Notes under the pieces: generated by a model
Databases searched by the model: none
Seen by the model: the letters and a program-made list of their open reading frames with translations, nothing else
What the model was told of the DNA's origin: nothing
Made by a program: the position numbers and the translations under genes
NCBI GenBank assembly: GCA_963796455.1
Contig: CAWCLO010000004.1
Location: 544,001-608,000 of the forward strand
Reading direction: 5' to 3'
DNA length: 64,000 bases
Source of the DNA: Candidatus Sulfomarinibacteraceae bacterium
Lineage (GTDB): Bacteria > Acidobacteriota > Thermoanaerobaculia > Thermoanaerobaculales > Sulfomarinibacteraceae
Shown here: positions 32,977 to 63,993 of the stretch, piece after piece
How positions within the stretch are numbered: position 1 is the stretch's first letter
How the letters are laid out: the number at the start of each line of letters is the position of its first letter

Positions 32977-33741
32977 ATGACACGGAATCGAAGCGCACGT
33001 GTGGTGTCAGCGACGATCGCCGGTGTGCTGTCCATGCTGTCGGCAGGTGCGGTGGCGGCGAACTCGCTGTGGGCGGATGACTGCGTGTTCAGCTTCGACC
33101 CCCAAACGATACTTGAGACGACGGACACTCTCTGCGTCACGGGTGATATCGATACCGTCCCCCCGGGCCAGATCTTCCCGCGGGCGACCATTTATGTGGT
33201 GGACGTGATCTTCGGCGACACCTTCGAGACCGGAACCGGCTTCCAGTGGTCGTACTTCCAACCATTCTGCGGCACCCCTCATGTTGGTCTGCGGGTCGAG
33301 GTCACCTGGCAGACACCCGGCGATCCAGATGAGACCGACGATGTCGGGACCAACCTCGATCTGCACATCCTCCACCCGGATGCCGGGGGCACGTGGCTCT
33401 CTGCGCACGATTGTTACCGCAACAACCCGGCTCCCGATTGGGGTGTGGTTGGCGTCCATGAAAACGCGGTCGTCATCCTGATCGACGACGATGGCGCCGG
33501 CCCCGAGATTGTTCAACTCACCGATCCGCAGTCGGTGAGCTACGACGTCGGGGTCCACTACTTCGACGACCTCGCCTTCGGTCCCTCCATCGCCACGGTG
33601 AAAGTCTGGTTGAACGGCGTCCAGGTCTATGAATACCCTGGCAAAACGTTGATCGACGGGGAGTTCTGGCATCTCGGATCGGTGGCGTGGCCGGGCGGCG
33701 CCTTCACCGGGGTCGACACGGTCACCGCGGGGATACCCTGA
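32977..33741 (+). CDS. Secreted protein with YfaP/DUF2135-like domain and internal FxDxFE peptide
   Basis: Signal peptide; IFGDTFETGTGFQW; LRVEVTW...NLDLHILHP...DDDGAGPE...YDVGVHYF. Confidence 0.72.
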   Translation: MTRNRSARVVSATIAGVLSMLSAGAVAANSLWADDCVFSFDPQTILETTDTLCVTGDIDTVPPGQIFPRATIYVVDVIFGDTFETGTGFQWSYFQPFCGTPHVGLRVEVTWQTPGDPDETDDVGTNLDLHILHPDAGGTWLSAHDCYRNNPAPDWGVVGVHENAVVILIDDDGAGPEIVQLTDPQSVSYDVGVHYFDDLAFGPSIATVKVWLNGVQVYEYPGKTLIDGEFWHLGSVAWPGGAFTGVDTVTAGIP

Positions 33742-33790
33742 CTGGCTGATCACCGAATCGATATCCGCTCCAAGTTCGTTGCGTCGAACT

Positions 33791-34732
33791 TCAGGAAACT
33801 TTGTTCGAGAGGCGCACGGCGCGCCGGAAGAATTCCATCGGCGCTCGCGAAGAGTTCCAAGCAAAGGTGAACTCTTCGTGGCCTGGGGGCCCGGGAAAGG
33901 CGCGAACCTCGAGTTGATGGGCGTCGAGCCACAAGCGCTGTGACAGATCCTCGGGTTCGTAGGAGCGTTTGAGGCCGTACAGCGGATCGCCGAGGATCGG
34001 CAGTCCATCATGGGCGAGCTGGACCCGGATCTGGTGTTTGCGGCCGGTGGATGGCCGAACCCGGACAAGGGCGAGACCGTCTTCAACCGCCAAAACTTCG
34101 ATTTCGCAGCGGCAGTTTGGTGGCAGGTCCTGCCGCACCTCCTGCCGCCAGTACTCGTGTGGGCTGCGAGCGATGTGGTGGATAAGAGTGCATTTTCCGG
34201 ACGGCGAATCGCGCTGCAGTTCGCAAACCGCGGTATAGGCCTTTTCCACCAACGATCGCGGTTGGAAAAGACGCGCGAAATGCGAGCGGCTTGTTGGATC
34301 GAGTGACAGGAGCACCAGGCCCGACGTCAACCGGTCGAGGCGGTGGAGCGGCGCGATGTCCTCATTTCCCGTGGCTTCGACGAGGAGGTGGAGAAGACAA
34401 GCGGTGACCCAACGGCCACCGGGCGTTACCGGGAGGTTGGGTGGTTTGTCCACCACCATGAGATGCTGATCCGACCACAGCACCTGGAAATCCTCTCGCA
34501 CCGGCGGCTCGCGCTCGACCTCGCGTCGATAATGCACTTCCAGAAGTGGTTCGTAGGGCGTCTCGGTTCCGATCATTCTGCCGGCCGCCCAGATCTTGCC
34601 GGCGGCGAAGCGTTCGTACCAGGTTTCGCGGGTGATCCTGGGAAAGCGGTGGAGAAAGAAATCGAAGATCGTCCGCTCGCCCTGCGGCGGTCGCTCGGGC
34701 AGCCTGACAGTTGAGTGTCGTGCCGGTGCCAT
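33791..34732 (-). CDS. RluA-family RNA pseudouridine synthase
   Basis: VVDKPPNL, LHRLDRLTSG, TGRKHQIR and PILGDPLY motifs. Confidence 0.9.
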   Translation of the reverse strand: MAPARHSTVRLPERPPQGERTIFDFFLHRFPRITRETWYERFAAGKIWAAGRMIGTETPYEPLLEVHYRREVEREPPVREDFQVLWSDQHLMVVDKPPNLPVTPGGRWVTACLLHLLVEATGNEDIAPLHRLDRLTSGLVLLSLDPTSRSHFARLFQPRSLVEKAYTAVCELQRDSPSGKCTLIHHIARSPHEYWRQEVRQDLPPNCRCEIEVLAVEDGLALVRVRPSTGRKHQIRVQLAHDGLPILGDPLYGLKRSYEPEDLSQRLWLDAHQLEVRAFPGPPGHEEFTFAWNSSRAPMEFFRRAVRLSNKVS

Positions 34733-34859
34733 ATTGACCATTGTTGCATTGTTGGAGGCGGCTGAAAACGCGCCCGGCACCGTGGTACCTTTGTCAAAAT
34801 CCAGAAGATCGCGTACGTGCATCGAGAGCACCAACAACACCGAAGAAGGAGATTGCAGC

Positions 34860-35822
34860 GTGAAAATACATCCAGGGCTCTTGTGCGGTTTGATAGTCGC
34901 GGTGGCCTTGACCGGAATTGGTCAGGACGGCTTTGCCGAGGAGTGCGCGCCGTCTCGCTGGGGTGTGGACGACCAAATCGGGGCTGCCAACCATGTTTCT
35001 CCTGAACAGGTATTGATGGCGGTCAAACTGGTCAAAAAGGGGCAATCCCACCCATTGGGTATCGTGGTCGATCCGAAAATGCCGGCCTATCCGCCCCGCT
35101 CCTTCTCCCTCCAGATCGTGCAGCCGGGTCAGCACAACGGCCGTAGCCTGGTCCAGGACCTCGGTTGGGATGCCTCCTACAACGACGATATGGCCCAGCT
35201 GTGGTTTGGCATCGGTCCGCAGCTCGATGGCCTCGGCCATATGGGTGAGGCCGGCGTCTATTACAACTGCAACAAGGCGGTCGATTTCATCGATATCTCG
35301 GGTTTGAAAAAACTCGGTACGGATAAGGTGCCGCCATTGGTCGGTCGCGGAGTGTTGCTCGATATGACCCGTTTTTTTGGCGTCGCCAACATGGCCTCGG
35401 GCCAGGCCATCACCTCGGCAGACCTCAAAGCTGCAGCCAAGGCTCAGGGTGTGAAGATCCGCCAGGGTGACGTGGTCTTGCTGCACACCGGTTGGACCGA
35501 CGCCATGCTGAGCTCGAACCCCGAGGCCTGGGCGGCGGGGGAGCCGGGCCTGACGAATGAGGCCGCCGCCTACCTCGCCTCACTCGATCCGATGGCAGTG
35601 GGTGCCGACACCTGGGGTGTCGAAGTCATTCCACCGGTGGAGGGCGACCGGCCTTTTTACGGCCATATCGAATTCCTGAAAAAGAAGGGCATCTACATCC
35701 TGGAAACAATGAATACCGGTCGCCTCGCCAAAGAGGAGGTCCAGGAATTCATGTTCGTTTTGGGTCAGGCCCGCATCAAGGGCACGGTGCAGATGATCAT
35801 CAACCCCGTGGCTCTTTGGTAA
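34860..35822 (+). CDS. Exported cyclase (kynurenine formamidase-like) family protein
   Basis: Signal peptide; WGVDDQIGAAN, QLDGLGH, GRGVLLD, GDVVLLHTGW and VGADTW motifs. Confidence 0.88.
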   Translation: MKIHPGLLCGLIVAVALTGIGQDGFAEECAPSRWGVDDQIGAANHVSPEQVLMAVKLVKKGQSHPLGIVVDPKMPAYPPRSFSLQIVQPGQHNGRSLVQDLGWDASYNDDMAQLWFGIGPQLDGLGHMGEAGVYYNCNKAVDFIDISGLKKLGTDKVPPLVGRGVLLDMTRFFGVANMASGQAITSADLKAAAKAQGVKIRQGDVVLLHTGWTDAMLSSNPEAWAAGEPGLTNEAAAYLASLDPMAVGADTWGVEVIPPVEGDRPFYGHIEFLKKKGIYILETMNTGRLAKEEVQEFMFVLGQARIKGTVQMIINPVALW

Positions 35823-35886
35823 AGGACTTGTCAGCAATTACCAGGGGGCCACTCAAAGCAGTTTGGCAAAACCGGGGAAGCGATTG

Positions 35887-36099
35887 ATGCGAGAACCTTC
35901 ATGTGATCGCGGGGGCCGGGCCATTCTCTTCGATTGGGGCGACACCCTGATGAGGGTTTTTCCGGAGTACGACGGCCCTATGTATGCGTGGCCGCGCGTG
36001 GAGGCAGTCGAAGGAACCGCGGAGAAGACCGCCGCCATGTACCGGACAATACACGGTATGCCTGAATTGCCGGTGGCATTGGAACTATTGCTGAAGTAG
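35887..36099 (+). pseudogene. Internally deleted HAD-family hydrolase remnant
   Basis: HAD motif I ILFDWGDTLM joined directly to a C-terminal-like RTIHGMPELPVAL; only 70 aa, motifs II-IV absent. Confidence 0.6.
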
Positions 36100-36430
36100 C
36101 GTCCGTCGAGTTTCGAGCGCCTGATTGTGATCCGAGAATCCATGACCCCGCCATTCATCCTCATGATAAAATTAGCCTTGTAAGTTTTGAGATAATAGTT
36201 ATGAGGGTGAGAACCATTCCGACATCCTCGGTTTCTCTTTTTGTGAATCCGAGTTCGATGTTTGGCGTGCGGTCGCACGACTGCTGCGCTCCGAGATGGT
36301 ACGCGGCCCGTCCCCGACATCCGTCGAGGGACCGATGAATGACGGTCGGACAGGTCTCCGGATCGAGATTGATTTCGGCCACGAACTCCGCGGATGTCTG
36401 GTCACCGACGCGGAATGCAAAGGAGGAAGA

Positions 36431-37024
36431 ATGTTGCAGCACCACCGATTAATGGCTGGAGGTCGAATCCTTTTGATGGCGTGCATGTTCGCTGTCGCCC
36501 TGAGCTTCGGTCCGGCAAGCGGCGCCTGGGCTCAGGACGGTTTCACTTCACCACTGATCATCCCGGCGGCCGAATTCGAATCATCGGGAGTGGGTTCTTT
36601 CGGTACGCTCGATCGATTCTCGAACACCCATGGGTATGTCTACGCAGTATCGGACGAACTGGCCTGTGTCATGGCACCCGTCTATCTTCCCAACGGAGCA
36701 ACCATCACCAGATTTGAAGCAGCGATGTCCGATCTGGTTTCCTACAATCCCGGTTCAACCTCGACCTGCCCCAGGTTCTATCCAGATGTTGAAGTGGATC
36801 TGATCTCGAACCAGATGGACGACAATCTCTACCCCCAGGACACCAGTGTCATCACCCACGCCAGTGTCGCATCCAATCTGAACACCGGCCAGACCCATAT
36901 CGTCAGTGACACCTCCATCGCGACCCCGAATGTCAACAACCTTCAGCAGATTTACTGGGTGCGGGTGTACGTCTGCGGTCTGTTCCAGGGCTTCCAGGGC
37001 GTGCGGATCCACTACGAGGAGTAG
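36431..37024 (+). CDS. Secreted hypothetical protein with one copy of an IPxxxF...VxLPNxAxI domain
   Basis: RBS AGGAGG; signal peptide ending AWA; domain shared with the next gene. Confidence 0.78.
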   Translation: MLQHHRLMAGGRILLMACMFAVALSFGPASGAWAQDGFTSPLIIPAAEFESSGVGSFGTLDRFSNTHGYVYAVSDELACVMAPVYLPNGATITRFEAAMSDLVSYNPGSTSTCPRFYPDVEVDLISNQMDDNLYPQDTSVITHASVASNLNTGQTHIVSDTSIATPNVNNLQQIYWVRVYVCGLFQGFQGVRIHYEE

Positions 37025-37028
37025 AGAG

Positions 37029-38285
37029 ATGAATAGAAAATCCATCTGCACCATCGTCACCGCCTCGATAGCCGCATTGCTGCTTTGCCTGCCGACGGCC
37101 GTGGCCGAAACAAATTCGCTCATGATTCCCGCCGCCGCTTTTTCGGCCGACGGAACAAACCAATTTGCCTATATCAACTACGGTGATTCTCTCGAGACCG
37201 GTACGACTCTTCACTTCCACGCCTGGGTCAAGTTGCCCAATGCGGCAACCATCACCAACGTCGACATGATGACCCTCGACGAAGACTCAGCCACCATCAC
37301 GGGTTATCTCAAACGAACAAAATTCGGTGTCGACAGCGGCACCGAAACACTCCTGACCTTTACCTCTCCAGGGAATATCGGCTGTTCGACCTCCGGTCTC
37401 TGCCACGACATGGAATCGCTCCTCGACATCAGGGTGGACGCCGCCAACTACGCCTACTGGTTCGACCTCGTCGTGCCGGACGCTGACGGTTCACCACCAA
37501 CCGAAAACGACCTCGCGTTCTATGCGCTTCGAATCATGTACGACTACGAAGACATGATTTTCAGTGACACATTCGAGTCGAGCGACGCCAGCATGTGGAC
37601 ATTGCAAACTGGTGGGAAGTCCGGGTTGAGTACGGCTGAGGAGATCCCGAAGGCAAAACCCATCACCGTCGACGGGCCCGTGGACGAACAGCGACTGGCG
37701 ATGTTCGAAAGTGCTCTGGCGATCAAAGACCCCCGCGCCCGGGATGCGCTCGAGAACGCCCTCCTGGGCAAAGCGGGCTACGGCAGCCCGTATATCATTC
37801 CTGGTCCGGCCTTCAAGACCCAGGGTTACACCGACTACGACACCTACTATTTCAGTGAATCCTATGGCTTTGTCTACGGACGGCCCGGCGATGAAGACGG
37901 TACGAATCTGACGGCGCCGGTGAACCTCCCCAACGGTGCTCAGATTTCCTGGTTCTTTGCTTTGTATGTCGACTCGGTCAGGTTTGGGTTCCAGGAAGAC
38001 ATCCGCTTCTGGCTGTCGCGAATGGACGCCACCGATATCATCCCAACCGACAACATGGTCTATGAAGTGACTTCGGGCCGCAGTACGGCAATCGAGTCAA
38101 TAGCGGTGGACGACGATGATATGGAAGCGGCGGTCCCGGGTTCGACCGATGTCAACAACGACAGATACAGTTACTGGGTCACGCTCGACGTGGGCGCCTA
38201 CGACGTGAGCCCCCCGGATCCGTATTCCGACGAGGAGTGGTGGCACAAGGTCTACGCGATCATGATTCTCTACACCATGCCTTGA
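37029..38285 (+). CDS. Secreted hypothetical protein with two copies of the same domain separated by an FxDxFE peptide
   Basis: Signal peptide; IPAAAF...VKLPNAATI; IFSDTFESSDASMW; IPGPAF...APVNLPNGAQI. Confidence 0.8.
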   Translation: MNRKSICTIVTASIAALLLCLPTAVAETNSLMIPAAAFSADGTNQFAYINYGDSLETGTTLHFHAWVKLPNAATITNVDMMTLDEDSATITGYLKRTKFGVDSGTETLLTFTSPGNIGCSTSGLCHDMESLLDIRVDAANYAYWFDLVVPDADGSPPTENDLAFYALRIMYDYEDMIFSDTFESSDASMWTLQTGGKSGLSTAEEIPKAKPITVDGPVDEQRLAMFESALAIKDPRARDALENALLGKAGYGSPYIIPGPAFKTQGYTDYDTYYFSESYGFVYGRPGDEDGTNLTAPVNLPNGAQISWFFALYVDSVRFGFQEDIRFWLSRMDATDIIPTDNMVYEVTSGRSTAIESIAVDDDDMEAAVPGSTDVNNDRYSYWVTLDVGAYDVSPPDPYSDEEWWHKVYAIMILYTMP

Positions 38286-38380
38286 TCGGACCTTCGGAGC
38301 CTTCGCGCTTCCCGAGACCGAATGAGGTTTATGGCCCGCAAACCAGGTTGCGGCGCTTCCGCCGGACCACAACCACCGAT

Positions 38381-38410
38381 CCCCCGGCTCTGCCGGGGGG
38401 TTCTTTCGTT
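38381..38410 (+). terminator. Probable intrinsic terminator
   Basis: CCCCCGGC-TCT-GCCGGGGG followed by a T-rich tail. Confidence 0.65.
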
Positions 38411-38494
38411 TCTGAATTTTCCCGGGCCTCGGTCGTAGGGTTATGATCAACGGAGCCTTTGCAGAACCCACGACCGAAAGCAGGAGGAAAACCA

Positions 38495-38683
38495 ATGGTT
38501 GACGATCCGGACAAAGAGAAAACGAAGAAACGACCTGGCAGTATGCTTGGAGTCGGCGTCGCGATCGGAGCGGGAGTTGGTGCTGCACTGGGCGTGGCGC
38601 TCGACAATATCGCAATGGGGGTCGGCCTTGGAGCCGGTCTAGGCGTTGCTCTCGGCGCTGCTTTTGATAAGTTTCGGGCGTGA
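38495..38683 (+). CDS. Small glycine-zipper membrane protein
   Basis: RBS AGGAGG; two GxxxGxxxG hydrophobic helices. Confidence 0.75.
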   Translation: MVDDPDKEKTKKRPGSMLGVGVAIGAGVGAALGVALDNIAMGVGLGAGLGVALGAAFDKFRA

Positions 38684-38812
38684 ATTGTCCACAATGGTAT
38701 GGGTTTTTTGCAGCACCGAAGCGATAGTGCTGATCAGGGGGATCGTTTTTTCTCCATCCTGTAGGACGAGATGGAGAAACGAAGTCGGGGAATCTCTCTG
38801 AACGGCGGTCGT

Positions 38813-39253
38813 TCAATGAAAACGACCGAGTCGCCGGTCGAGCATGAGGCTGGCTGTGAATGCGCCGCAGCAGGCTGCAACCACGGCCAGGATTTCTCCT
38901 CGGAGCCCGGTCGCAATCTCTGAACTCACGATCAGGTCGCCATATGCGGCCCAGCACATGGTCACAGCGACAATGCAGACGACACTCGAGAGGACGATCG
39001 CTGTCCCGGCCAACCATTTTTCCAGAAGACTCTCCGCCGGTCGCAGTACACCGGATTCCTCGGCCACGCGCACCGCGAAATCGGCCGGCAGCGGCACAAG
39101 CTCCTCGATTTCTTTGAGACGGCGGTGGAGATCGAGATACTCCTCGACCTGAGGTCGAGCTGTAGGAGGGGTCATTTCCTCGAACTCCTCGGGACCGAGA
39201 TCGACCAGTTCGTGCAATTTCTCTTGAATCTCATCGTCGCTCCAGGTGGTCAT
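38813..39253 (-). CDS. Probable membrane anti-sigma factor
   Basis: Overlaps the ECF stop codon (ATGA); N-terminal soluble part, LPADFAVRV, two TM helices. Confidence 0.72.
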   Translation of the reverse strand: MTTWSDDEIQEKLHELVDLGPEEFEEMTPPTARPQVEEYLDLHRRLKEIEELVPLPADFAVRVAEESGVLRPAESLLEKWLAGTAIVLSSVVCIVAVTMCWAAYGDLIVSSEIATGLRGEILAVVAACCGAFTASLMLDRRLGRFH

Positions 39254-39789
39254 TCGATCCTCCGTTTCAATATCTGACGGGCGCGAAAGAGGTGGCTTTT
39301 CACCGTGCCTGCTGGCATTGACAGGATGGCCGCAATCTCGGCAACGGACATCTCCTCCAGGTAGTACAGCCTGACGATTTCGCGGCCGGGTTCGGGTAGT
39401 TCGTCGACGACACTTAGCACCTGACGGGTGATGAGTCTTGGTTCTGCGGACGACGATTCGGTTGCTGCGATGTCCGTCGACTGGTGGTGAGCCGACGAGA
39501 GGGAATCGGTGAGCTTCTCCTCCTTCACAGCGCGCCTCCTGATGTGATTGAGTGTCACATTGCGCGCCACCCGCGCGATCCAGGCCTTGAGTGATCCGTT
39601 CTCGAAGGTGTGGAGCTTCTGGTGCACCCTCAGAAAGACCTCCTGGCAGAGCTCCTCCTGATCAGCCGGGTTGTGCACGAATCCTCCGACCACATGAAAG
39701 ACGAGTCCCTGATAACGGCGCACCAAGGTCACGAACGGTGCGGGTTGACCCCGTAACACTCCTTCCACGAGTTGGCGTTCGTCGTCCAC
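39250..39789 (-). CDS. ECF sigma factor (sigma-70 group 4)
   Basis: EELCQEVFLRV, KAWIARVARN and EIAAILSMPAGTVKSHLFRAR motifs; start codon uncertain (GTG 39789 or 39804). Confidence 0.9.
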   Translation of the reverse strand: MDDERQLVEGVLRGQPAPFVTLVRRYQGLVFHVVGGFVHNPADQEELCQEVFLRVHQKLHTFENGSLKAWIARVARNVTLNHIRRRAVKEEKLTDSLSSAHHQSTDIAATESSSAEPRLITRQVLSVVDELPEPGREIVRLYYLEEMSVAEIAAILSMPAGTVKSHLFRARQILKRRIE

Positions 39790-39798
39790 ATCTATAGA

Positions 39799-39863: not shown

Positions 39864-39913
39864 TATGCCCCGACAGCGAAAAAATGGCTGAATCAAAAAC
39901 AGGAGGCACGGAC

Positions 39914-44467: not shown

Positions 44468-45381
44468 ATGCATCGGTTTCTAAGAAATGCCGATTGCAGA
44501 TCTGGGAGGCGAGCGGCAGTTCGTTTGACCTTCCTTGTCCTGTGGACTGTGCTGCCGGGGTGCAGCACGACCACGGTAAAGGGAGCAATCGATCCATCCT
44601 GCGGACCCCAAGATATTTCTCAAGTCGTGATGGAGACGGCGCAGGGTCGGATCGTTTTCGAGCTGCTCCCGTCAGCCGCGCCGCGAGCGGTCGATCAGAT
44701 CATTCGTCTTGTCAACGGCCCGTTTATTCGCCATGAAATCACCGGTGATCAAGAAAGAACCGATTTCGCTGGCTACTACGACGGCCTCGTTTTCGATCTG
44801 GCATTTCCGCACAATAGCCTGGCGACCTCGGTGCGTCCTCCACCCGACCTGATCCTCATCCCGACCATGATCGACGCATCGGCGGTCGGGCTTGATGAAC
44901 GAAGAATCCTCACAGCCAACGAAGCCAACAAACTTTGGCAATTCGAACTTTTCCCGTTCCAGGCTGGTTTCGCATCGGATGACGAAATGCATCCGCGGAT
45001 GCGGGAATGGCTCAATCGTTGGGGTGAAACCCAAAGCTCTGATTTCTTGATCGGAGTGTCTCAGCAGGAGATCAACGAGGCGCTCGGATACAAATACGTG
45101 CGGGGGTTGGAATCGCGAAAAAACACCCGCGGCGCCGTCGCCCTCGAGCCATTCGATGCTACCCGAGATCGACCCCGCGGTTGGTGATCCTACTGGCCGA
45201 TGCACCGCACTTCGACGGTCGGCGGATGGTCGTAGGGAGCGTGGTCTTCGGACTGGAGCATTGCGGACGCCATATCGTCGCGCCGCTGATCCCCGCCAAA
45301 GCCGTCAAAAACCGGCCGGTGGTGCCGGTGCAGATTCGACGAATGCCGGCATCGAATGCCGGTCACCGAGTGATCCGATAG
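44468..45381 (+). pseudogene. Cyclophilin-type peptidyl-prolyl isomerase lipoprotein, frameshifted near 45175
   Basis: Lipobox LPGC; METAQGRIVFELLPSAAPRAV, YYDGLVF, TRGAVAL; continues in another frame as PHFDGRRMVVGSVVFGLE. Confidence 0.68.
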
Positions 45382-45402
45382 ACGGATCGAAGGGAGCCCG
45401 TG

Positions 45403-47100
45403 ATGTCGAAAAGGAATCAGGTGCTGTTCTGCCTCGCCACCATCTACGGCAATGGCGGTATGCCTCCAGCTGTACGCCACCGAGAAGCCGCCGGTGGAGT
45501 CCGGTCCCAAGGGACCACATGACCCTGAATGGTTCGGAGGCGGGCAACGACACGCCGGTGGAATTGTATGGATTGTGCCCGTGGTCGTCACGATGTCCGA
45601 GGTGCCTGAAACTCCTGTTCCGGCCAAGTCCGCCAATGATCTCAGGGTTCATTTCCAGGGTGAGTTCCAGCAGCACCAGGCAACGCGATCGCGGCGGTCG
45701 GCGATCTCGAGTACGGAGCGTGGCGAGGCCACGGTGATGATCGATCTCGAATCCCCGGCTCCGAGCGTCGGCGAGTCCAAACGCTCCAGGCGCGGGAGTG
45801 GTCGCTTTCGATGGGGCGCCTGCTACCGGTTGGATCCCTCCGGACACGGTGATGGCTGTCGGTGAGGAATATATCGTCGAGGCCGTCAACTCGGGTTTTC
45901 AGGTCTTTACCAAGACCGGCCTCCAGACCCGCGCCTACACTGATTTCTCGTCCTTCGTCAATCTGCCGACACCGTGGAACGGTTTCTGCTTTGATCCGCG
46001 CGTCGTCTACGATCCCTGGCAAGACCGGTTCGTGATGTTGATCCTGGGCCTCGACAACACCAATCTGAAATCCTATTTCTGGATCATGGTGTCGCAGACA
46101 TCGAATCCCAACGGCGATTGGTTTCTCGTATCGCTTCGATTCCACCACGGGGGACCCCGGCTCGGAGCAGTGGCTCGATTTTGCGAGCCTCGGGTCGGAT
46201 CCGTGGGGAGTGTATGTGGTCGGCAACTCGTTCCCATTTGCGCGGAGGCCAGAGGATTTCAGCAGAGCCGCCTGTGGACGATCAGCCGCGAGGTCATGAG
46301 CGGCGGGACGGCCGCCTTCATCTTCATGAACGATCTGCGGGTGGCCGAACGGCGATCTCGCCTTCGGTGTGCAAGTGGCCCAGGCCCAGAAAGCCAGAGT
46401 GCGTTGGAGGCGACATTCTTCATCAACAGCTATTCAGCGTCCGGCACCGAGGTCTGTCTGTGGCAGCTCACCGGGGATCGCTTTTCGGGGCAGGGGATGG
46501 GTGCCACCACGCTAAACCGCTCCGCCATCGCCGGCTCGTACCTACTTCGGCATCTTTCACAACGTGGACCAGCCGGGCAGCGATTGGGACATCGATGGCG
46601 GCGATGCCAGAATCCAGAACGCGGTCTATGCCCAAGGAAAGGTTTACACCACCTTCGCCCTCGATTGGGATGGCAGTCAGAGCTACAGCGAGGTTTATGT
46701 GGCGGCCTTCAACACCGGCGACGGAAGCAAGGCGTGGGATCATTCGACTCTGGAAAGCCAGGACTATTTCATGTTCTATCCGGCGTTGGCGGTGGAGGGC
46801 GGAGAGGAGCACCCAAATTGGATGGTGGCCATGAGCATGACAGTGCCCTCAGACCCGCTCGGGTATGCCGGAACGGTTGGGGTCACCCACGATCCGGGCC
46901 ACCAATAGTGGCAGCTTCGGTGTGGGACCGCCAGGGGCTCGGACCCTACTCGGTATGGGACGGTGGCTCGGAGGGGGTCGGCAAGAAACAGGTGGGGCGA
47001 CTACAGCATGGCGGTGTACGACTGGACCTGCAAAAACGCATGGGGTGCGGCCGAGTACGCCGACCGCCTCCAATTCGTATGCAGCCGGAACGCCTGGCGC
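45403..47100 (+). pseudogene. Large secreted beta-rich protein broken by many single-base indels
   Basis: Fragments in alternating frames: PPDTVMAVG..VEAVN, FDPRVVYD, WLDFASLG, FMFYPALAV, NRWGDYS, WGAAEYA; 3' end unclear. Confidence 0.7.
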
Positions 47101-55054: not shown

Positions 55055-56008
55055 ATGCGATCACCGGTTCGGATGGCTGTGGCGTGCTGGCTACAGTGCC
55101 TTGCACTGGTCGCCGCGGTCGGTGGCGCCCAGGAGACCGTTCACTTCACGGTTACGGCCGATGCCCGAGCGAATCACACCGACTACGAGGCAGTGCTGGA
55201 GGCAATGAACAACCTGGTCGGCGGCCAGGGTGACTTCCAGGTGTCGCCGGGTGACATGGACGGCCGCGTCTGGGACAACCGGGTCGTGGTGGATTGGTAT
55301 GCGGGAGCCTCCGCTGTTTGGATCCCCGGGGTCGGCAATCACGAGGCCGAGGATCCGGTTGAGATGGAGTGGGTCCGGTCTGAGTTCCTTAATGGCAACG
55401 GAGAGCGGACGCCACTCCAGAATCTGGTGGTCCGGGCCGGGCCCGCGGGCAGCCAGGAGACCACTTTCAGTTGGGATGTGGGCAATGCCCATTTTGTATA
55501 CCTCAACCAATACTGGGACGGCACCGCGAGTTCCGGGAGCGACGTGGCAACCGACGGCGACGTGGTCCCGGAGCTGCTGGCGTGGCTTCGAAACGATCTC
55601 GAGGCCAACACGTTGCCGGCGGTGTTCGTCTTCGGCCACGAACCGGCCTTTCCCATGTACCGCCACCTCGACGACAGTCTCAACGCGCACGCGACCAACC
55701 GCGACGCTTTTTGGACGCTGCTCGAGGAGAAGTCAGTAGTGGCGTACATCTGTGGCCACACCCACGTTTTCAGCACTTACAGGCCCGAAGGGGGACGGGT
55801 TTGGCAGATCGACGTCGGAAATGCGGGCAACGACTCCAGCTTTGACGATGGCCAGACCTTTCTCTCGGTGACTGTCGACGCCTCGCAGGTGGGTTTCGAG
55901 ATCTGCCGAAACAGCGAGGGCTCGTTCTCGTGCGATTCGAGCTGGTCCGAGGCCATCCCGATCGTGTTCAAGGATGGCTTCGAGTCGGGCGACTCCGGAA
56001 AGTGGTGA
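55055..56008 (+). CDS. Secreted metallophosphoesterase with C-terminal FxDGFE peptide
   Basis: ADAR, PGDMD, GNHE, GHEP and GHTH motifs; ends VFKDGFESGDSGKW. Confidence 0.85.
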   Translation: MRSPVRMAVACWLQCLALVAAVGGAQETVHFTVTADARANHTDYEAVLEAMNNLVGGQGDFQVSPGDMDGRVWDNRVVVDWYAGASAVWIPGVGNHEAEDPVEMEWVRSEFLNGNGERTPLQNLVVRAGPAGSQETTFSWDVGNAHFVYLNQYWDGTASSGSDVATDGDVVPELLAWLRNDLEANTLPAVFVFGHEPAFPMYRHLDDSLNAHATNRDAFWTLLEEKSVVAYICGHTHVFSTYRPEGGRVWQIDVGNAGNDSSFDDGQTFLSVTVDASQVGFEICRNSEGSFSCDSSWSEAIPIVFKDGFESGDSGKW

Positions 56009-56113: not shown

Positions 56114-57577
56114 CTACAGACCAAGAGCCATCGCCAGGGCGATCAAGGCCATTTGTATCACGAACAGAATTCCGGCCAGAGGTAGAAACCACTTCCACCA
56201 CTTTTGGATTGGAATGCCACCGAGGGCACAGATGATCACACAGCCGCATGTGGGCCAGACCAGGTTGGAAAGCCCGTCACCGAACTGAAAGGCCAGAACT
56301 GCAACCTGGCGGCTCACTCCGAGCATGTCGGCGAGCGGCGCCATGATCGGCATCGTTGCGGCCGCCTGCCCACTGCCCGATGGAATAAAGAAATTCAGCA
56401 CTGTTTGAGCCACCAGCATGGTCTGGGCCGACACCACTGAAGGGAGGCCCTTCAAGCTGTTCGACAAGGCGAAGATGATCGTGTCTTTGATCTGGGCGTC
56501 CTCCATGACGACGACGATCGCCTTGGCGACACCCGTCAGAAGACCGCCCCAGACGATGGTCTTGACCCCGACCATGAATTCGTCGACCCAACGGTTGGGA
56601 GACCAGCCGGCAATGCCGGCGGCGATGATGGACATGATGATGAACAACCCGGCCAGTTCCCCGTAACCCCACCCCAGTTTCATCATCCCGTACATCAGGA
56701 AACCGAGGGTTGCCAGGACGGTGATGATGATCAATACGGCTTTCGTGTCCATCCTGTACTGCTCGAGGTCTTCCTTTTTGAGCGCATGGATGGACTCTTG
56801 TCCAAAGACCACGGAAAGGCGAGGGTTTCTTTGAGTCCTCTTTCCGTAGACGATGACGTACGCCGAACAGGCGAAGATGAAGCACACCAGGGCGAAGACG
56901 CGAAAACCGGTGGCCGAATAGATGGGAACCGCTGCGATGGATTGGGCGACAGCAACTGTATAGGGATTGAAGGTGGCTCCCATGAACCCGACGTACATGC
57001 CCAGGGCGATGATCGAAAAACCATACATCGCGTCATAGCCCATGGCGACACCCAGCCCGACCATCAGTGGAATGAAACCGTAGAACTCGCTCAACATCCC
57101 GAACATCGAGCTCCCGAGGGCAAAGACCGACATCAGAATCGGCACCAACACTACGTCCTTGTTGCCCATCTTCCGAAGTACCGTGCCGATCCCGGCATGG
57201 AAGGCCCCTGTCTTGACGAGAATGCCGAATGTGCCCGCACACGTGAAGATCACGAAGATGATATCCGCCGCATCGACGCAGCCGGTATAGAGAGACTTGA
57301 AATAGGCGAGGAAACCCGTCGGGTTGGACTCCGACTCGTCCAGATAATGGAAAGTACCGTCGATGGCGATCTTCTTCATTCTGCCGTTGACGTCCACCTC
57401 TTCATAATCGTAGCTTCCCGGTGGAATCACCCAGGTCAGGGCCGCCATGATCAACACGATGACGGCCACGATAATGTACGTGTCGGGCATGGCGAGTTTT
57501 CGTTTTTTGGTGGGGGCTGTGTTCTCGGGAGAGGTGCCCTCGTTCTCTGATTCCTCGTTCACCGCGGCCTCCGACAA
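56114..57577 (-). CDS. YfcC/DcuC-family transporter
   Basis: MPDTYII, LTWVIPPGSY, NPYTVAVAQSIA, FFIPSGSGQA and AFQFGDG motifs. Confidence 0.9.
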   Translation of the reverse strand: MSEAAVNEESENEGTSPENTAPTKKRKLAMPDTYIIVAVIVLIMAALTWVIPPGSYDYEEVDVNGRMKKIAIDGTFHYLDESESNPTGFLAYFKSLYTGCVDAADIIFVIFTCAGTFGILVKTGAFHAGIGTVLRKMGNKDVVLVPILMSVFALGSSMFGMLSEFYGFIPLMVGLGVAMGYDAMYGFSIIALGMYVGFMGATFNPYTVAVAQSIAAVPIYSATGFRVFALVCFIFACSAYVIVYGKRTQRNPRLSVVFGQESIHALKKEDLEQYRMDTKAVLIIITVLATLGFLMYGMMKLGWGYGELAGLFIIMSIIAAGIAGWSPNRWVDEFMVGVKTIVWGGLLTGVAKAIVVVMEDAQIKDTIIFALSNSLKGLPSVVSAQTMLVAQTVLNFFIPSGSGQAAATMPIMAPLADMLGVSRQVAVLAFQFGDGLSNLVWPTCGCVIICALGGIPIQKWWKWFLPLAGILFVIQMALIALAMALGL

Positions 57578-57686
57578 TGAATAAGGAAAGGTTTTTTCCT
57601 TTCCTGGTACCGGTCACCTTAGCAGGGTGACACCCGTGCTGCGCCCAGCATTCATAGCGGTGGGGCTGAATCCGGGAATTGATTCC

Positions 57687-58481
57687 TCAGGGTTGGAACG
57701 CGGCCTGGATCATATCGTAGGGACCGCTGCTGCCATCCGGTTGGTAATCCACCAGCACCACCGAGTGCAGCTTGTTCCAATCGACGGTCATGCCGGACAG
57801 ATCCACCACCAGGTTGAAAGTGTCGGTGGCGCCGTCGGCCAACGAAGCAATGCTGTCCCAGGAAGCCTCACGGACGTAGCGATCGGTCACCCTGGCAATA
57901 CCGTCCGGAGAATCCTCGAAGGCAATGGCGTGCACCTTGGCGCGGTTTGCGGTCGACAGAGTCACTCCGGTTTTGTTGGTGACCTGGATCGTGAATTCGA
58001 AGGTGTCGTCGACTCGCTGTCTTTGCACCGTGATCGCACCTTCAGGCGCGCGGGCGAGGGCGGTCTCGACGAGCGCGCGGTAGTCCGTGCTGTAGTCGGT
58101 GGGCCCCATCGACCACAGATTTCCGCTGTCGAGAATGATCAGGGGAAAAGCGTAACTCGAACCCGGAATGGCGTAATAGACCCTCGAAAGGCGGTCGCCT
58201 CGCGAGTCGTAATAGTAGTTCTCGAGAAACACAATCGGCTGCTGCGTGTAGTCCGAGGAGATATGGTCGACCACCGGACCGGCGGCCTGGCAGTGGCCTC
58301 AGCCGGGGTTGTAAAAACCCTCGAAGACCACAAATCGGGTCGGCTGCTCCCAGGGTGTGGTTGCCCCGCTTTCGAAGCCATCGCTGAAAATGGCGTTGAT
58401 GCCGGCGGGCACAGGCCCCACGGCAAGCATGGCCGCGAGCAGAATAGGCGCGATTCGAAGAAAAGACGGCATCAGCGTCAT
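57687..58481 (-). CDS. Candidate exported selenoprotein: Omp28-like thioredoxin fold (UGHC) plus beta-sandwich domain; in-frame TGA at 58301-58299
   Basis: Two track ORFs (58299-58550 and 57687-58274) are in one frame separated only by TGA; read-through gives VVFEGFYNPG-U-GHC; SECIS-like hairpin follows. Confidence 0.85.
58269..58287 (-). promoter_or_regulatory. Putative bacterial SECIS element
   Basis: GGCCGCCG-GUC-CGGUGGUC stem-loop starting 12 nt after the UGA; G-initiated loop about 20 nt downstream. Confidence 0.68.
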
Positions 58482-58779
58482 CCTGCGAGGCCCGCTCGGT
58501 AATTCGGAAGATATTCTGGTCTGACTAACTACAGTGTTGATGGAAGTCATATCTCAATTCTAGTTGATGGATCGACACTGTCTGTGACGGGGATCAGCCC
58601 CGACTTCGAAATCTGGAGGGCGGGGAGGGGTGCCAAGTATCGCGATGTCAGCCGTGGGCATTCTTTCTGGTCGTTCCGACAGCGACGCATTCGGCGAAAC
58701 AAATGCCGGTTTTGAACGTACTAAAATTTTAGTAGCGCGTGGGCGGGACCTTCTCGAGGGTGCTCAAACGGAGGTGTTG

Positions 58780-59634
58780 ATGAAGTATTGCGCCGGCCTC
58801 ATTGTCGGGATCGCTGCGCTGTCCTTCGGGTACGCGACGGCCGGCCAACCGGCAATTGTCATCTACGTCGCCAACGAAGGTTTTTTGATCGAGGTGGGCT
58901 CTCGAAAAATCCTGATCGATGCCATCTTCGATGACCAATCGATTACATACGCCCACGTTCCGGACGAAGAGACGCTCAACCTGATGAAGGCTTCAAAGGA
59001 CCCCTTCGACGAGATCGATCTCGTGCTGGCCACGCACTCGCACCGGGATCATTTCAGCGTCGCACCGATGCTGGAGCATCTCGATGGGAATCCTTCAGGT
59101 GTGTTGATCGGTCCGCCGCAGGTTGTGGGGTCTCTGAAGGCCTCCGTGCCGGAGGGCGAGAGTGCCGGCATCACGGCTCGAGAGATCGATCTCGATCTCT
59201 TCGAGTCCGCAGATCTCGAGATCGACGGGATTCGGGTCCGGGCCATCCGGCTCCGCCACTCCGCTTACATGGAGACTGATAAGGAAACCGGGGAGCAGTT
59301 CAATCGCCACGAAGGAGTCGAAAACCTGGTCTATTTGATTGAAATCGACGGCTTCACAATGCTCCACGTCGGAGATGCCGTTCTGTCTCAGAACCTCGAG
59401 CTCTTCTCGGATGGCCGATTCGAGAACGAAAAGATCGACATTGTATTCCTGGAGTTCTTCGACTGGTCTGATGAAACAAAGGCTGTTCTGGATCGGTGGA
59501 TGACGCCCGATGACATTGTCTTCATGCATCTTCCCCCGGACCCCGAGAAGATCCTCAAGATCGAAGCGCGCCTTCTCCAGCAGTTTCCCAACGCCGTGGT
59601 GTTTGCGGAGCCGATGGAAGAGAAGGCGCTCTAG
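58780..59634 (+). CDS. Exported MBL-fold metallo-hydrolase
   Basis: YVANEGFLI, THSHRDH, HVGD and FMH motifs; RBS GGAGG. Confidence 0.87.
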   Translation: MKYCAGLIVGIAALSFGYATAGQPAIVIYVANEGFLIEVGSRKILIDAIFDDQSITYAHVPDEETLNLMKASKDPFDEIDLVLATHSHRDHFSVAPMLEHLDGNPSGVLIGPPQVVGSLKASVPEGESAGITAREIDLDLFESADLEIDGIRVRAIRLRHSAYMETDKETGEQFNRHEGVENLVYLIEIDGFTMLHVGDAVLSQNLELFSDGRFENEKIDIVFLEFFDWSDETKAVLDRWMTPDDIVFMHLPPDPEKILKIEARLLQQFPNAVVFAEPMEEKAL

Positions 59635-59761
59635 GGTCGATGCTCATTTCCCAATCGGGGTTTTCGGGCGGCCACGTATCACATTGCCACGTCAGCGGAC
59701 ACAACGTCGTTGAGTTGCCCATCGGACCGAAGGATCCCGTGGTGAGTCGCATCCCTGAGTG

Positions 59762-60547
59762 CTAGTCACTGGCTTCGAGGCGTTGGATCTCCTCATTGAT
59801 GAGTTCTCTAGAGCGCTCGTCTGACCAGGGTTCTTCAATATGCTCAACCTTCGGATCCGGTGTTCCTGCTTCGTCAGATTTCGCGAAAATCAGAGGGGTC
59901 AGGAATGTGGGTTCGATGAGATTCGAAGAATACCAGCTCTTGAACTCTTCTGCAGTCCGCGCGTGGTATACATTCCTCCACTTGTCGAGGGTGATGTCAA
60001 AAAATACTGGACGGTCGAGTTTGATGTGTTCGTTTGAAATTCGATCATCAAAATAGGTCATCCGAACTTCGAGGAAGATCCAGATGTCCGCCGCCACGAG
60101 GCGCATCTCGCCGCCAGTGTACTTTTCAAAATGGGCGACGAATTGAGGCTGAGCGGTCCCCGATTCGTCGTGGAACTGAAACATCAACATTTCGCGTGAA
60201 TCGCAATAGAAATCTGCGAACGATGTTAGGGGTTTCACGTCATACTTCTCGAAGCTGTCCAGGAATGCCTTTTCTGAATACACCGTGCGACCGTTGACGC
60301 CCCCAAAAACTTTACATCCTGAGACGAACGAAGTGGCCGAATGAGCTTGCCCGTCACGATCGAACAACCTTTTCCTGATCTCGAGAAACGGCCATGGAAG
60401 ACCATCTGCGAGGTATTCGTGCCAAATGAAGGAATAGGTGATATTTGCACCGCTGGTCACTCGCAACATCCCGTCGGCGTGCATGAAGACATCATCGACG
60501 TAATCCGATCTCGAATACGTACTCGGCGGTCCATCCAGAATGGGCAT
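59762..60547 (-). CDS. Hypothetical protein, lower GC than its neighbours
   Basis: 261-aa ORF with RBS GGAGG before ATG 60547; no motif recognised. Confidence 0.6.
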   Translation of the reverse strand: MPILDGPPSTYSRSDYVDDVFMHADGMLRVTSGANITYSFIWHEYLADGLPWPFLEIRKRLFDRDGQAHSATSFVSGCKVFGGVNGRTVYSEKAFLDSFEKYDVKPLTSFADFYCDSREMLMFQFHDESGTAQPQFVAHFEKYTGGEMRLVAADIWIFLEVRMTYFDDRISNEHIKLDRPVFFDITLDKWRNVYHARTAEEFKSWYSSNLIEPTFLTPLIFAKSDEAGTPDPKVEHIEEPWSDERSRELINEEIQRLEASD

Positions 60548-60789
60548 TCCCACCTCCACTTCTCTTTCCCAGGGCGAATTCAGATCTCGCCGCTGTAACA
60601 ATCAGGAGTTCCTTTTCATAATAGCGTGGGGTGCCACTTGCACGGAGCGTGGGCACCGTCGTGACGTCCATGCCTGAAAGAGTGGAGGCCTTGCATGAGG
60701 GAACACTTCGCCCCAGTGTTTTGTTATTCGGGAAAACATCGACAAACGGCGGCACCTTGAATCACGATTCTGAATTTGATGAAACCCTG

Positions 60790-62097
60790 ATGGAGAGACA
60801 GCGACCGGTTGCCGGGATCGCATGGGGAGTCACCCTTTGTCTGATCCTCCTTGCTGGACAGGCCCATGCGCACGTGGCTCTCGACTCCCCCAACGGGGGG
60901 GAAATGCTCGAAGCCGGATCCGTTGCTCAGATTGTCTGGCACGATGTGGTGGCGCATGGACCGGCGGACTACGATCTCTGGTACTCAACGACTGGTCCGG
61001 ATGGTCCCTGGATCGCCATCGCGAGTGATCTTCCACCATCAGGATCTGAGAACACCTCATACGATTGGGTGGTTCCCGCTTCACCGTCCGACCGGGTTCG
61101 TCTCCGGGTGCGACAGGACAACGCCGACGAGGACTATCTGGACATCAGTGATTCGGACCTGGCGATCGTCAGTTTTCTGGCGGGTCAATCGGTCGAACTC
61201 GAAGCCGCGAAAGATGCCACGATTTATGAAGAGGAAAACGGCACTCCTGCGAACGGCTCTGGCAGTTACCTTTTCACCGGCCGCGCTGCGACACAAAATG
61301 CTTCGGCCGAACGGCGGGCATTGCTCGCGTTCCCGATCTCTCAGTCGATTCCCGAGGGTTCGACAATCACTTCAGTGAGCCTCGAGTTGACCATGTCGCG
61401 GACCATCTCGGGAGGCCAGACAGTGACGCTTCACCGGCTGCTCGAGGATTGGGGTGAGGGTCCATCAGATCCACCTGGGCAAGAGGGGGCAGGCGCAACG
61501 GCGGCGGCGGGCGACGCCACCTGGATGCATCGAGTGTTCTCGGAAACCCTCTGGTCGACACCCGGGTCCTCATTCGCGCAAACGGCGAGCGCTGAGTTGC
61601 AGGTCGCCGGCACGGGCAGTTACACATTTTCGAACAATCCTGAGCTGGTTGCCGACGTCCAACAGTGGCTTGACGAAGCTTCCAGCAATTTCGGTTGGGT
61701 GCTCGTGATCGACTCGCCCTTTTCAGGCAGTGCGAAGCGTTTCAACAGCCGGGAAAACGGCACGGCATCCAGCCGTCCAAAGCTGACCATTCGATATGAA
61801 TCCGATCTCAAGCAACCAACCGCCGGTTTCGGTTTCGCTCCAGCCAGCCCGCAACCCGGTGAAGAGGTGCGTTTCAGCGACGAATCGACTGGTGCACCGA
61901 CGAGCTGGCTCTGGGACTTCGGAGACGGTCAGACCAGCGAACAACAAAACCCGGTTCACACCTACCCGACCTCTGGAAGCCGGACCGTGACCCTCGTGGT
62001 GAGCAACGATTCCGGTACGGACTCCGTTGCTAAAGAGGTGAACATTGGCGGTTCTCCGGTGCGCCGGCCTTCGCGGCGAGTGGTGCCCATTCGTTGA
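60790..62097 (+). CDS. Secreted multidomain protein: Ig-like, DNRLRE-like and PKD domains with Arg-rich tail
   Basis: Signal peptide (AHA); SPNGGE; DATIYEE..RRALLAF..RPKLTI; PTSWLWDFGDG..NPVHTY; ends RRPSRRVVPIR. Confidence 0.85.
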   Translation: MERQRPVAGIAWGVTLCLILLAGQAHAHVALDSPNGGEMLEAGSVAQIVWHDVVAHGPADYDLWYSTTGPDGPWIAIASDLPPSGSENTSYDWVVPASPSDRVRLRVRQDNADEDYLDISDSDLAIVSFLAGQSVELEAAKDATIYEEENGTPANGSGSYLFTGRAATQNASAERRALLAFPISQSIPEGSTITSVSLELTMSRTISGGQTVTLHRLLEDWGEGPSDPPGQEGAGATAAAGDATWMHRVFSETLWSTPGSSFAQTASAELQVAGTGSYTFSNNPELVADVQQWLDEASSNFGWVLVIDSPFSGSAKRFNSRENGTASSRPKLTIRYESDLKQPTAGFGFAPASPQPGEEVRFSDESTGAPTSWLWDFGDGQTSEQQNPVHTYPTSGSRTVTLVVSNDSGTDSVAKEVNIGGSPVRRPSRRVVPIR

Positions 62098-62259
62098 CCT
62101 CCAGGGATCCACCCACGAGGTGGAACCTTGCAATGCTCCGGTCGTCCCGCCATAGGCCATTACTTGAAGCCTGTTGCGCCCTCACTTCGGGACGCGTGTT
62201 ACGGGGCAAATTTCGCCGGACCCATTTGTGTGTTCCGGTTCTCCGGTGGGCCAGAGAAT

Positions 62260-62712
62260 CTAGCCCTCGGTCAAGAAGCCGTTCTTTGCTGCGGCTTTGT
62301 GCGCGCCTTCGATCCACACCGTGTTCAGTTGCTGTACAACGAAGCTGCCCGAATACTGCTCCTTGAAGTAAATGTGAGCCTCCGGTGCAAAGGTATTCGT
62401 TCGGACATCCCGGATGATCCACTTGTATACGTATATCTGACGTTTGTGCAGCGGATCCCGTGACAGCACATAAGGTGTGCCGAGAAGGTCGATCACCTCG
62501 GCTTGCGTTTTGCCGACGACCAACTCCTGCAGGTATTTCTTTGTGTAGAACCGATTGCCGGGCGAGGAGGGGGCCGCAATATTGATGCTATGCGCCAGCG
62601 CCAACCCGAACACCAAAAGGAATCCGAAGAATGCATACCATCCGGGCATCCTCGACAGAGGGCCCCGAGACCGGTGGCTGCCTACGAAGATTTCTGAGAC
62701 CATGTAATGCAT
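62260..62712 (-). CDS. Hypothetical membrane-anchored protein with SmpA/BamE-like motif
   Basis: TM segment followed by GKTQAEVIDLLGTP; start uncertain. Confidence 0.5.
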   Translation of the reverse strand: MHYMVSEIFVGSHRSRGPLSRMPGWYAFFGFLLVFGLALAHSINIAAPSSPGNRFYTKKYLQELVVGKTQAEVIDLLGTPYVLSRDPLHKRQIYVYKWIIRDVRTNTFAPEAHIYFKEQYSGSFVVQQLNTVWIEGAHKAAAKNGFLTEG

Positions 62713-62791
62713 ATCGGCGAAGTTAATCGTATCAACTGGGCTGAATCAACTTCGTGAGGCTGATCACACGGGCATCAATTGAGTCGAGACG

Positions 62792-62825
62792 AAGAAAAGG
62801 GTTGCCACCCGGGAGGGTGGCAACC
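62792..62825 (-). terminator. Intrinsic terminator after the lactonase-like gene
   Basis: GGTTGCCACCC-4 nt-GGGTGGCAACC then CTTTTCTT on the - strand. Confidence 0.8.
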
Positions 62826-62838
62826 ATGAGATCACTAT

Positions 62839-63993
62839 CTATTGCCACTCGCCGGTGTCGCCTTCCTCGAAACCGTCCTGGAAGATCCCAACGTTAAACA
62901 CGGCAAGAGTATCTTCAACGCAACCCACGTACAGTGAACTGCTGGTTGGATCGAGAGCCAGGGAGTACGGCCCGTCCAACCCGGTGACGCCGTCGGCTCC
63001 ATTTGTTGCCGTGTAGTCGAGGGTGAGTTCGCCGGTGTTGAGATTCCTGTCGAACACGGACAGTGTGTCCCCGGTCTCGCTCACCGCATAGATCCGCTTT
63101 CCGGTGCGATCGATGGCAAGTTTCCGGGAAAAGGTGAGAAAGTGATCTTCGACGTAAGTCAGGAGACCGGTCCCGGCATCACGGGAAAAAACCCCGACAT
63201 AGGATCCGCTTGTGTAGATGTGATTTCCAGCGGGGTCGCCGGTCACATTGTAGAGACCGAATAGACCGCTCACTCCGTCGACTCCTTCCACCACTTGGCC
63301 GAGCCAGGTCAGAGCACCTGTGGAGGAGTCGCGGGAAAAGATCGCGATCGCGTCATCGTCGGCGCCGGCGACATAGACGTGGCCGCCATCGGGGGCCACG
63401 AAGACGCCCCGGGGGTTGGCGATTCCGTCGACCCCGTCCACTCCATCGAAGTGCACCTCGACAAAAGTCAGCACACCGGTTGTCGGTTCGCGAGAAAAGA
63501 CCGCCAGCCCGTCATCGTTGGCGCCGCCCGCATAAACGTGTTTCCCGTCGGCGCTGATGGCAATTGCAACCGTCAATTCGAGGCCGTCGATGTTGCCGGA
63601 ACCATCGATGTACTCGTCCACGTAGGTGAGCGCACCGGTTCCCAGGTGGCGGGAGTAAACCACAATTGAGTCGTCGTATCCGGTTGATATGTAGAGGTGG
63701 GTGTTGTCGGGTGAAAGGACCGCGTCCCCGACATAGCCGACATCCGCCAGGGTATCGACCCAGGTCAGGGCGCCGGTGGAGGGGTCGCGGCTCAGGGTCG
63801 TGACAGCGCCGGTCCACACGCCGGCAATGACAAACCCCCCGTTCGAGGAGGTCAGGACCGCCCTCACGTCCGGATAATACGTCGCATCTTCGTGGTGCTC
63901 GAGAAAGGACACGAACCCGCCGGCCCACACACCGCCGGAAATGAGACATAGCGCGAAAAGTACCAACAGGAAAGTTGTTCTCTTGGGTTCCAC
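62839..63993 (-). CDS. Secreted lactonase-like beta-propeller protein with C-terminal FxDGFE peptide
   Basis: Signal peptide; repeated SPDG/SADG-HVY...FSRD..TGALT blades; ends IFQDGFEEGDTGEWQ. Confidence 0.88.
   Translation of the reverse strand: MEPKRTTFLLVLFALCLISGGVWAGGFVSFLEHHEDATYYPDVRAVLTSSNGGFVIAGVWTGAVTTLSRDPSTGALTWVDTLADVGYVGDAVLSPDNTHLYISTGYDDSIVVYSRHLGTGALTYVDEYIDGSGNIDGLELTVAIAISADGKHVYAGGANDDGLAVFSREPTTGVLTFVEVHFDGVDGVDGIANPRGVFVAPDGGHVYVAGADDDAIAIFSRDSSTGALTWLGQVVEGVDGVSGLFGLYNVTGDPAGNHIYTSGSYVGVFSRDAGTGLLTYVEDHFLTFSRKLAIDRTGKRIYAVSETGDTLSVFDRNLNTGELTLDYTATNGADGVTGLDGPYSLALDPTSSSLYVGCVEDTLAVFNVGIFQDGFEEGDTGEWQ

Follow-up and report, generated by a model that had tools for sequence, protein, structure and literature searches.

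Why five unrelated secreted proteins encoded within 64,000 nucleotides should share one 14-residue peptide, [IV]FxD[GT]FExxxxxxW, is the question raised by the stretch of Candidatus Sulfomarinibacteraceae DNA analyzed here (the window; G000:C4:544001-608000 of genome G000, 5.02 Mb and 90.5% complete). The original prediction took the peptide for a sorting or docking tag. Our analysis favors a split jelly roll as the likely answer: the tag would dock about 65 unrelated exported proteins on a separately exported partner, here called the catcher, which is the same domain minus that piece. A six-frame search of the window recovered the five peptides with exact translations, coordinates and strands, and detected no sixth match to F.D[GT]FE.{6}W. 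The copies and their carriers are given below, with scores from the genome-wide position-weight matrix.

33208..33249, + strand: tag copy 1, 28.7 bits; internal, preceded by a short N-terminal segment and followed by the main domain.
32977..33741, + strand: carrier 1, an exported protein; start codon uncertain (32917-33001).
37557..37598, + strand: tag copy 2, 34.0 bits; in the linker behind domain 1 of a homologous pair.
37029..38285, + strand: carrier 2; signal peptide and a duplicated unknown domain, the tag separating the copies.
55964..56005, + strand: tag copy 3, 36.4 bits; the last 14 residues of carrier 3.
55055..56008, + strand: carrier 3, an exported metallophosphoesterase (PF00149, Pfam).
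58350..58391, - strand: tag copy 4, 41.9 bits; immediately after the signal peptide.
57687..58472, - strand: carrier 4, a likely exported selenoprotein; in-frame TGA at 58299-58301 and a UxxC motif.
62845..62886, - strand: tag copy 5, 35.5 bits; one residue ahead of the stop.
62839..63993, - strand: carrier 5, an exported lactonase-type beta-propeller (PF10282, Pfam).

The placement first described was thus exact: C-terminal in 55055-56008 and 62839-63993, behind the signal peptide in 57687-58472, and internal in 32977-33741 and 37029-38285. The view that the carriers have different folds held for the metallophosphoesterase, the beta-propeller and the duplicated unknown domain; the YfaP-like fold named for carrier 1 and the thioredoxin-like fold named for carrier 4 are putative, and neither protein had a Pfam or NCBIfam match. 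Carrier 4 reads through its in-frame TGA as U-G-H-C and SelB is encoded in the genome, so that this gene product is likely an exported, tagged selenoprotein. The single-domain paralog upstream of carrier 2 (36335-37024) is without a tag.

The repertoire of tags in the whole genome was characterized with the position-weight matrix, which detected 65 copies at 20 bits or more and 70 at 14 bits or more. The matrix was trained on its own matches and only the reversed-frame null, which gave 0 matches at 14 bits or more, is independent. The consensus proved longer than 14 residues, [IVL]FxDGFESGD[TL]xxW, usually followed by SxxxP and the stop, and this 19-residue form was present in 23 of the 48 C-terminal copies. 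Forty-eight of the 65 copies lie 25 residues or less from the stop, eight follow a signal peptide, eight are in linkers and one opens a whole domain, the last three classes having been sorted by eye. At the C-terminal tags the chain ends 0-11 residues past W14 in polar residues, and neither a transmembrane helix nor a basic tail was present, as had been claimed from the five window copies; 17 of the 65 are not C-terminal at all.

Carriers of the tag were enriched in proteins with features of export, consistent with the earlier remark that the peptide was not seen in cytoplasmic proteins. By a crude heuristic applied to genes from a rough caller, 37 of 52 carriers of at least 150 residues were export-like, compared to 982 of the 3,199 remaining proteins (odds ratio 5.6, p 6e-9). 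The heuristic called for a hydrophobic stretch at the N-terminus and no more than one transmembrane segment after it. Among 14 carriers without a hydrophobic start, six had a signal peptide by eye and eight resembled pieces of frameshifted genes. Pfam analysis of 40 carriers outside the window (of 50 called genes) detected extracellular-type domains or none, including FG-GAP, beta-helix, DUF11, Calx-beta, PKD, GH44, GSDH, CAP, C25, LamG and MAM, and detected no cytoplasmic family among the 40. No Pfam or NCBIfam model covers the tag, and none covers the catcher. Two adjacent C25 (PorU/gingipain-like) genes at G000:C2:25183-36414 (L048) have the tag directly before the peptidase region, a layout also present in L149. 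The protein encoded at G000:C7:122327-123691 (- strand) has a twin-arginine-type signal and a weaker C-terminal tag (16.7 bits); tags may therefore also occur on Tat cargo. Several N-terminal tags (L054, G000:C1:187478-188650, C1:305474-306046) have a Cys at tag position 12 and a second Cys a few residues later, perhaps a disulfide-stapled variant.

The origin of the tag is indicated by a 3,666-residue protein of the same genome, whose C-terminal domain of 190 residues starts with the motif. A profile of this domain matched 4,414 proteins in a 50%-identity library. In the best 150 of these matches the motif stood ahead of 238 of 310 domain copies, 157 of them with a gap of 6 residues; among the 72 copies without a motif match, 21 were cut at the protein start and most others had a diverged motif by eye. 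The predicted structure of the intact domain is a concanavalin A-like (ConA-like) jelly roll (predicted local distance difference test, pLDDT, 88.7), and the nearest structures were PL20 glucuronan lyase, PL14, PL36 and PL7 lyases, and Cip1 (Z 15-16.6); the Atlas gave the same structural neighborhood. Identity to the Cip1 and PL20 structures was only 8-12% and no lyase activity is implied. Model position 1 of PF14099 falls on the F of DGFE in an intact copy, a stretch below the cut-off in a protein match of E 1.5e-7. In Cip1 (PMC3764139), strand 1 of the N-terminus is Ile2-Asp4, the following loop is Phe6-Trp15, and the calcium ligands are Asp5 and Glu7 of that N-terminal loop, loop 32-41 and Asp206. 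Tag positions D4, x5, F6, E7 and W14 correspond to the N-terminal strand and calcium-loop positions so described, with the ligands assigned by homology (PMC3764139). Sequence and fold correspondence identify the tag as strand 1 plus the calcium loop of a jelly-roll domain of the PL20/Cip1 type. A strand of a larger shared domain had been named as the contrary reading of the peptide; the tag is such a strand, and the rest of the domain is absent from all five window carriers, so the shared origin explains the tag and does not refute it.

Neither the domain profiles nor the tag profiles matched any PDB sequence below E 0.24, and word-seeded homolog searches on the divergent domain gave 0 and 2 matches. 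The N-terminal FxDxFxxGxLxxW of calnexin, matched at E 0.4-0.6, is suggestive only. A Corona_NS4 match on the intact domain (E 2e-4, below the cut-off) was treated as chance, and neurotoxin binding domains among the fold matches were set aside as reflecting only the common ConA-like fold. In 80 of 124 stretches with motif loci from GTDB, the motif was C-terminal in 46 of 53 labeled Acidobacteriota and in 11 of 27 others, and all six Chloroflexota-labeled loci continue into the whole domain. Named records with the motif were mostly Thermoanaerobaculia and other Acidobacteriota. A related but shorter tail may be present in certain Gammaproteobacteria. The intact domains of G113 and G015 (L029, L037, L038, L043, L044) are strongly basic (isoelectric point, pI, 10-11), as if binding an acidic glycan; the catchers have a pI of 4-7.

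A genome search with the domain profile detected two headless copies of the domain outside the window.

G000:C4:342585-343259: catcher 1, 224 residues (201 in the mature form); a signal peptide and the domain minus the motif.
G000:C4:1200858-1201562: catcher 2, more diverged, likewise with a signal peptide.

The mature catchers start, in alignment, where the tag and a short linker stop in intact copies, and no tag motif was present in the headless catchers read. Catcher 1 was modeled with a pLDDT of 91 with the tag absent. Its residue 1 aligns to residue 26 of Cip1 (3ZYP; Z 14.0, root-mean-square deviation 2.8, 167 aligned) and to residue 22 of 2ZZJ (Z 16.5). The part missing from the catcher corresponds to Cip1 1-25, which leaves an acceptor fold one strand short. 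The C-terminal Asp of the catcher (D190, the counterpart of Cip1 Asp206) was invariant in 16 of 16 alignment rows. The split is visible on one protein family, the GSDH proteins: the GSDH cargo of this genome has the tag alone, and four GSDH proteins of G113 and G015 (46-54% identity) end in the tag and the whole domain. Catcher 2 lies directly behind a tagged gene and ahead of methyl- and glycosyltransferase genes. One run (L220:1011-5163; G000:C4:1197410-1201562) holds an extracytoplasmic function (ECF) sigma factor, a zinc-finger anti-sigma factor, a membrane protein, a tagged metalloprotease-like gene and catcher 2, and is followed by the methyl-/glycosyltransferase cluster.

The distribution of the tag and the catcher was compared in 121 genomes of the class and in 274 genomes of the phylum outside it. 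A DNA pattern for the motif detected it in 15 of the 121 class genomes, with up to 72 copies each; the pattern misses GGA and GGG at position 5 and its counts are therefore low (22 in G000, compared to 31 in the phylum scan and 65 by the matrix). The domain profile, in a search that scores a limited number of candidates per genome, matched 20 of the 121, including all 15 motif-positive genomes. Reading of the loci showed a headless, signal-peptide-bearing catcher in 14 of the 15 motif-positive genomes versus 2 of 106 pattern-negative ones. Five of the 14 catcher genomes had contributed to the search profile and nine had not. The fifteenth genome, G113, has two whole domains only and no free tag, and all 14 class genomes with at least three pattern matches have a headless catcher. 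The two exceptional genomes are G034, in which a catcher-dockerin fusion and one tagged protein are 15 kb apart on the same contig, and G001. Of the other pattern-negative genomes, three had weak matches in unrelated long proteins and 101 had none. Outside the class, one to five motif copies were detected in 9 of the 274 genomes.

The same survey bears on an alternative in which a PorU-like C25 peptidase would process the tag as a sorting signal, by cleavage or transpeptidation. Both C25 genes of the genome are tagged ahead of the peptidase region, and C25 was detected in 14 of the 15 motif-positive class genomes. However, C25, used as a control, did not track with the tag: of the 60 class genomes (among 121) in which it was present, 46 were pattern-negative, and it was not found in G118, a genome with nine pattern matches. 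In addition, tags at the N-terminus or inside a protein cannot serve for cleavage at the C-terminus, and the transmembrane helix and basic tail are lacking. Processing by C25 is very improbable.

Homologs of carrier 3 suggest that the tag occupies a position otherwise used for anchoring. The comparison covers the 120 homologs listed of a total of 519. A C-terminal tag is present in the 14 closest and a C-terminal PEP-CTERM in 47 (15 by Pfam and 32 by regular expression); Dockerin_1 occurs in three, two of which have PEP-CTERM as well, and the ends of 58 are short or of another kind. Catchers are themselves fused to SLH domains in G045 (Pfam) and G074 (by eye) and to Dockerin_1 in G034. The catcher-SLH gene of G045 adjoins a polysaccharide pyruvyl transferase, an enzyme that usually accompanies SLH anchoring. 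A glycan-modifying gene flanks the catcher at 11 of 17 loci (Pfam, chosen neighbors scanned), and the families represented were glycosyltransferases, sulfatase-fold proteins, and acyl-, sulfo- and pyruvyltransferases. Sulfatase-fold genes number only 12-39 per genome in five genomes with glycan-flanked catchers. In G001 the catcher lies within a run of five sulfatase-fold genes (L028; G001:C34:89592-98472). The fusions and the glycan-gene neighbors suggest attachment to a decorated glycan of the cell surface. At 5 of the 17 catcher loci a gene for an ECF sigma or anti-sigma factor is just upstream, and the anti-sigma-like genes at the catchers of G070 and G010 encode a C-terminal tag-like peptide (21.5 and 25.5 bits).

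The probable mechanism is one in which cargo and catcher would be exported separately, the cargo by Sec or Tat, after which the tag would fit into the catcher with F2, F6 and W14 buried, a calcium-assisted fold complementation. The inserted tag would complete a calcium site, the other ligands of which are predicted in the catcher, in a conserved loop and the invariant C-terminal Asp. Less certain is the further step, in which the catcher would keep its cargo at the envelope by binding a decorated surface glycan, directly or by a fused SLH or dockerin domain. We regard binding of the tag to the catcher as quite probable, whether or not the complex is a shuttle; for retention of cargo on the envelope by the catcher, the chances appear about even. 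A non-covalent docking module on exported proteins, the function first proposed, is supported, with the headless catcher as candidate receptor; nothing points to the new secretion machine that had also been suggested. More tentatively, with a chance of somewhat less than even, the jelly roll may have been cut in two in the Thermoanaerobaculia, its head of 14-19 residues spreading to the termini or linkers of dozens of enzymes and adhesins and its headless body becoming a glycan-bound surface adaptor, the supply of which would be sensed by the adjacent ECF sigma/anti-sigma pair with its look-alike tag.

Several observations weigh against docking on an anchored catcher. Tag residues 1-11 had a pLDDT below 50 in the intact-domain model, for which 7 of 22 alignment rows cover the tag, so that tag insertion rests on homology and was not seen. 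Both catchers of the genome are without a transmembrane segment, a conserved lipobox or SLH, and SLH was not found anywhere in the 90.5% complete genome, which leaves the anchoring step without a visible basis here. In catcher 2, about 35 consecutive residues do not resemble the homologs, and the gene may be damaged or misassembled. Of five genomes tested outside the class, four had no catcher match and their copies are free tails or linkers, which counts against strict dependence (the fifth has a whole domain), and G001 has a catcher but no tag by a loose pattern. Finally, the genomes are related and the samples are not independent, so the counts overstate independence.

The small, soluble, unanchored catchers of the genome also agree with an alternative in which tag and catcher do bind and the complex is an export or folding shuttle, for example for crossing the outer membrane via a type II system, with no lasting anchor. 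Two secretins are encoded in the genome, and one or two catchers serve about 65 cargoes. The SLH and dockerin fusions and the pyruvyl-transferase neighbor point instead to attachment, as does the presence of the tag in the place of PEP-CTERM in homologs, and the internal and N-terminal tags (17 of 65) suit docking. We consider such a shuttle unlikely. Somewhat less probable still is that the tag acts alone, as a small calcium-binding or stabilizing cap or a relic of domain loss, with the headless protein an independent component of surface-glycan loci. The genomes with tags and no catcher, the tagless G001 with its catcher in a sulfatase-gene cluster and the confident catcher model in the absence of the tag would fit this reading; it leaves unexplained that the split point is exactly complementary, that every class genome with at least three pattern matches has a headless catcher, and that F, D, F, E and W are kept across dozens of unrelated carriers.

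Other features of the window include an exported DNRLRE-domain/PKD protein without a tag (60790-62097, + strand), which has an Arg-rich tail, RRPSRRV, at its end; a quick regular-expression search detected no clear family of such tails in the genome. Fragmented genes at 23387-25447 (+ strand) and 44630-46908 (+ strand) reflect apparent frameshifts, which are common in the assembly and elsewhere interrupt several tagged genes.

If true, the split jelly roll would give bacteria, in addition to cleaved anchors and dockerin-type modules, a third means of directing many exported proteins to a single site. It would account for an unannotated tail that is very common in a class of Acidobacteriota both abundant and mostly uncultured. 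It would also show a docking system arising by domain splitting and provide a short, position-independent, probably calcium-switchable tag for protein engineering. Since both partners are named, a test needs only a peptide and a 200-residue protein.

In dockerin-cohesin, one of the known systems, many enzymes have a small calcium-dependent module in common and dock by it on a shared receptor, which can be SLH-anchored. Dockerin and the tag fill the same slot in carrier 3 homologs, but the tag consists of 14-19 residues taken from the fold of its candidate receptor and is not a folded double EF-hand. Dockerin (PF00404) was detected on none of 45 carriers scanned, the fold of the candidate receptor is ConA-like and not cohesin, and no multi-receptor scaffold was found in the genome. 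PEP-CTERM/exosortase, LPXTG/sortase and the C-terminal domain (CTD)/PorU system of type IX secretion (T9SS) likewise place a terminal address on unrelated exported proteins, and PEP-CTERM is interchangeable with the tag in one enzyme family, the phosphoesterases. The tag differs from all three in being position-independent (17 of 65 copies are not C-terminal) and in having no transmembrane helix or basic tail. Exosortase (PF09721) was not found in the 90.5% complete genome, TIGR04183 and PF18962 had no match on the carriers scanned, and the T9SS CTD is an Ig-like domain of about 70 residues compared to 14-23 for the tag.

Cip1 (3ZYP) and PL20 glucuronan lyase (2ZZJ), of the PF14099 type, share with the tag and catcher the fold (Z 14-16.6) and a calcium site to which the D-x-F-E loop of the N-terminus, a middle loop and an Asp near the C-terminus contribute (PMC3764139). 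In those proteins a single chain forms the domain, whereas in this genome dozens of other proteins carry the N-terminal part and a gene of its own encodes the remainder. In AbpX, a donor strand from one chain completes the jelly roll of another, with an aromatic clamp and a donor-strand Glu that binds calcium (bioRxiv 10.64898/2026.01.04.697558). AbpX, cannulae and chaperone-usher pili share the principle of strand complementation, calcium-assisted and with an acceptor one strand short (bioRxiv 10.64898/2026.01.04.697558). Theirs are homopolymer filaments with donor and groove in each subunit, whereas tag and catcher come from separate genes, a donor strand is missing from the catcher, and the cargoes are unrelated with mostly C-terminal donors. 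No description of the tag or of a split tag/catcher scheme was found in the literature searched, the coverage of which excludes subscription journals and preprint supplements. The tag and catcher fail the defining tests of dockerin-cohesin, donor-strand filaments, PEP-CTERM and T9SS, and probably constitute a real, undescribed docking system.

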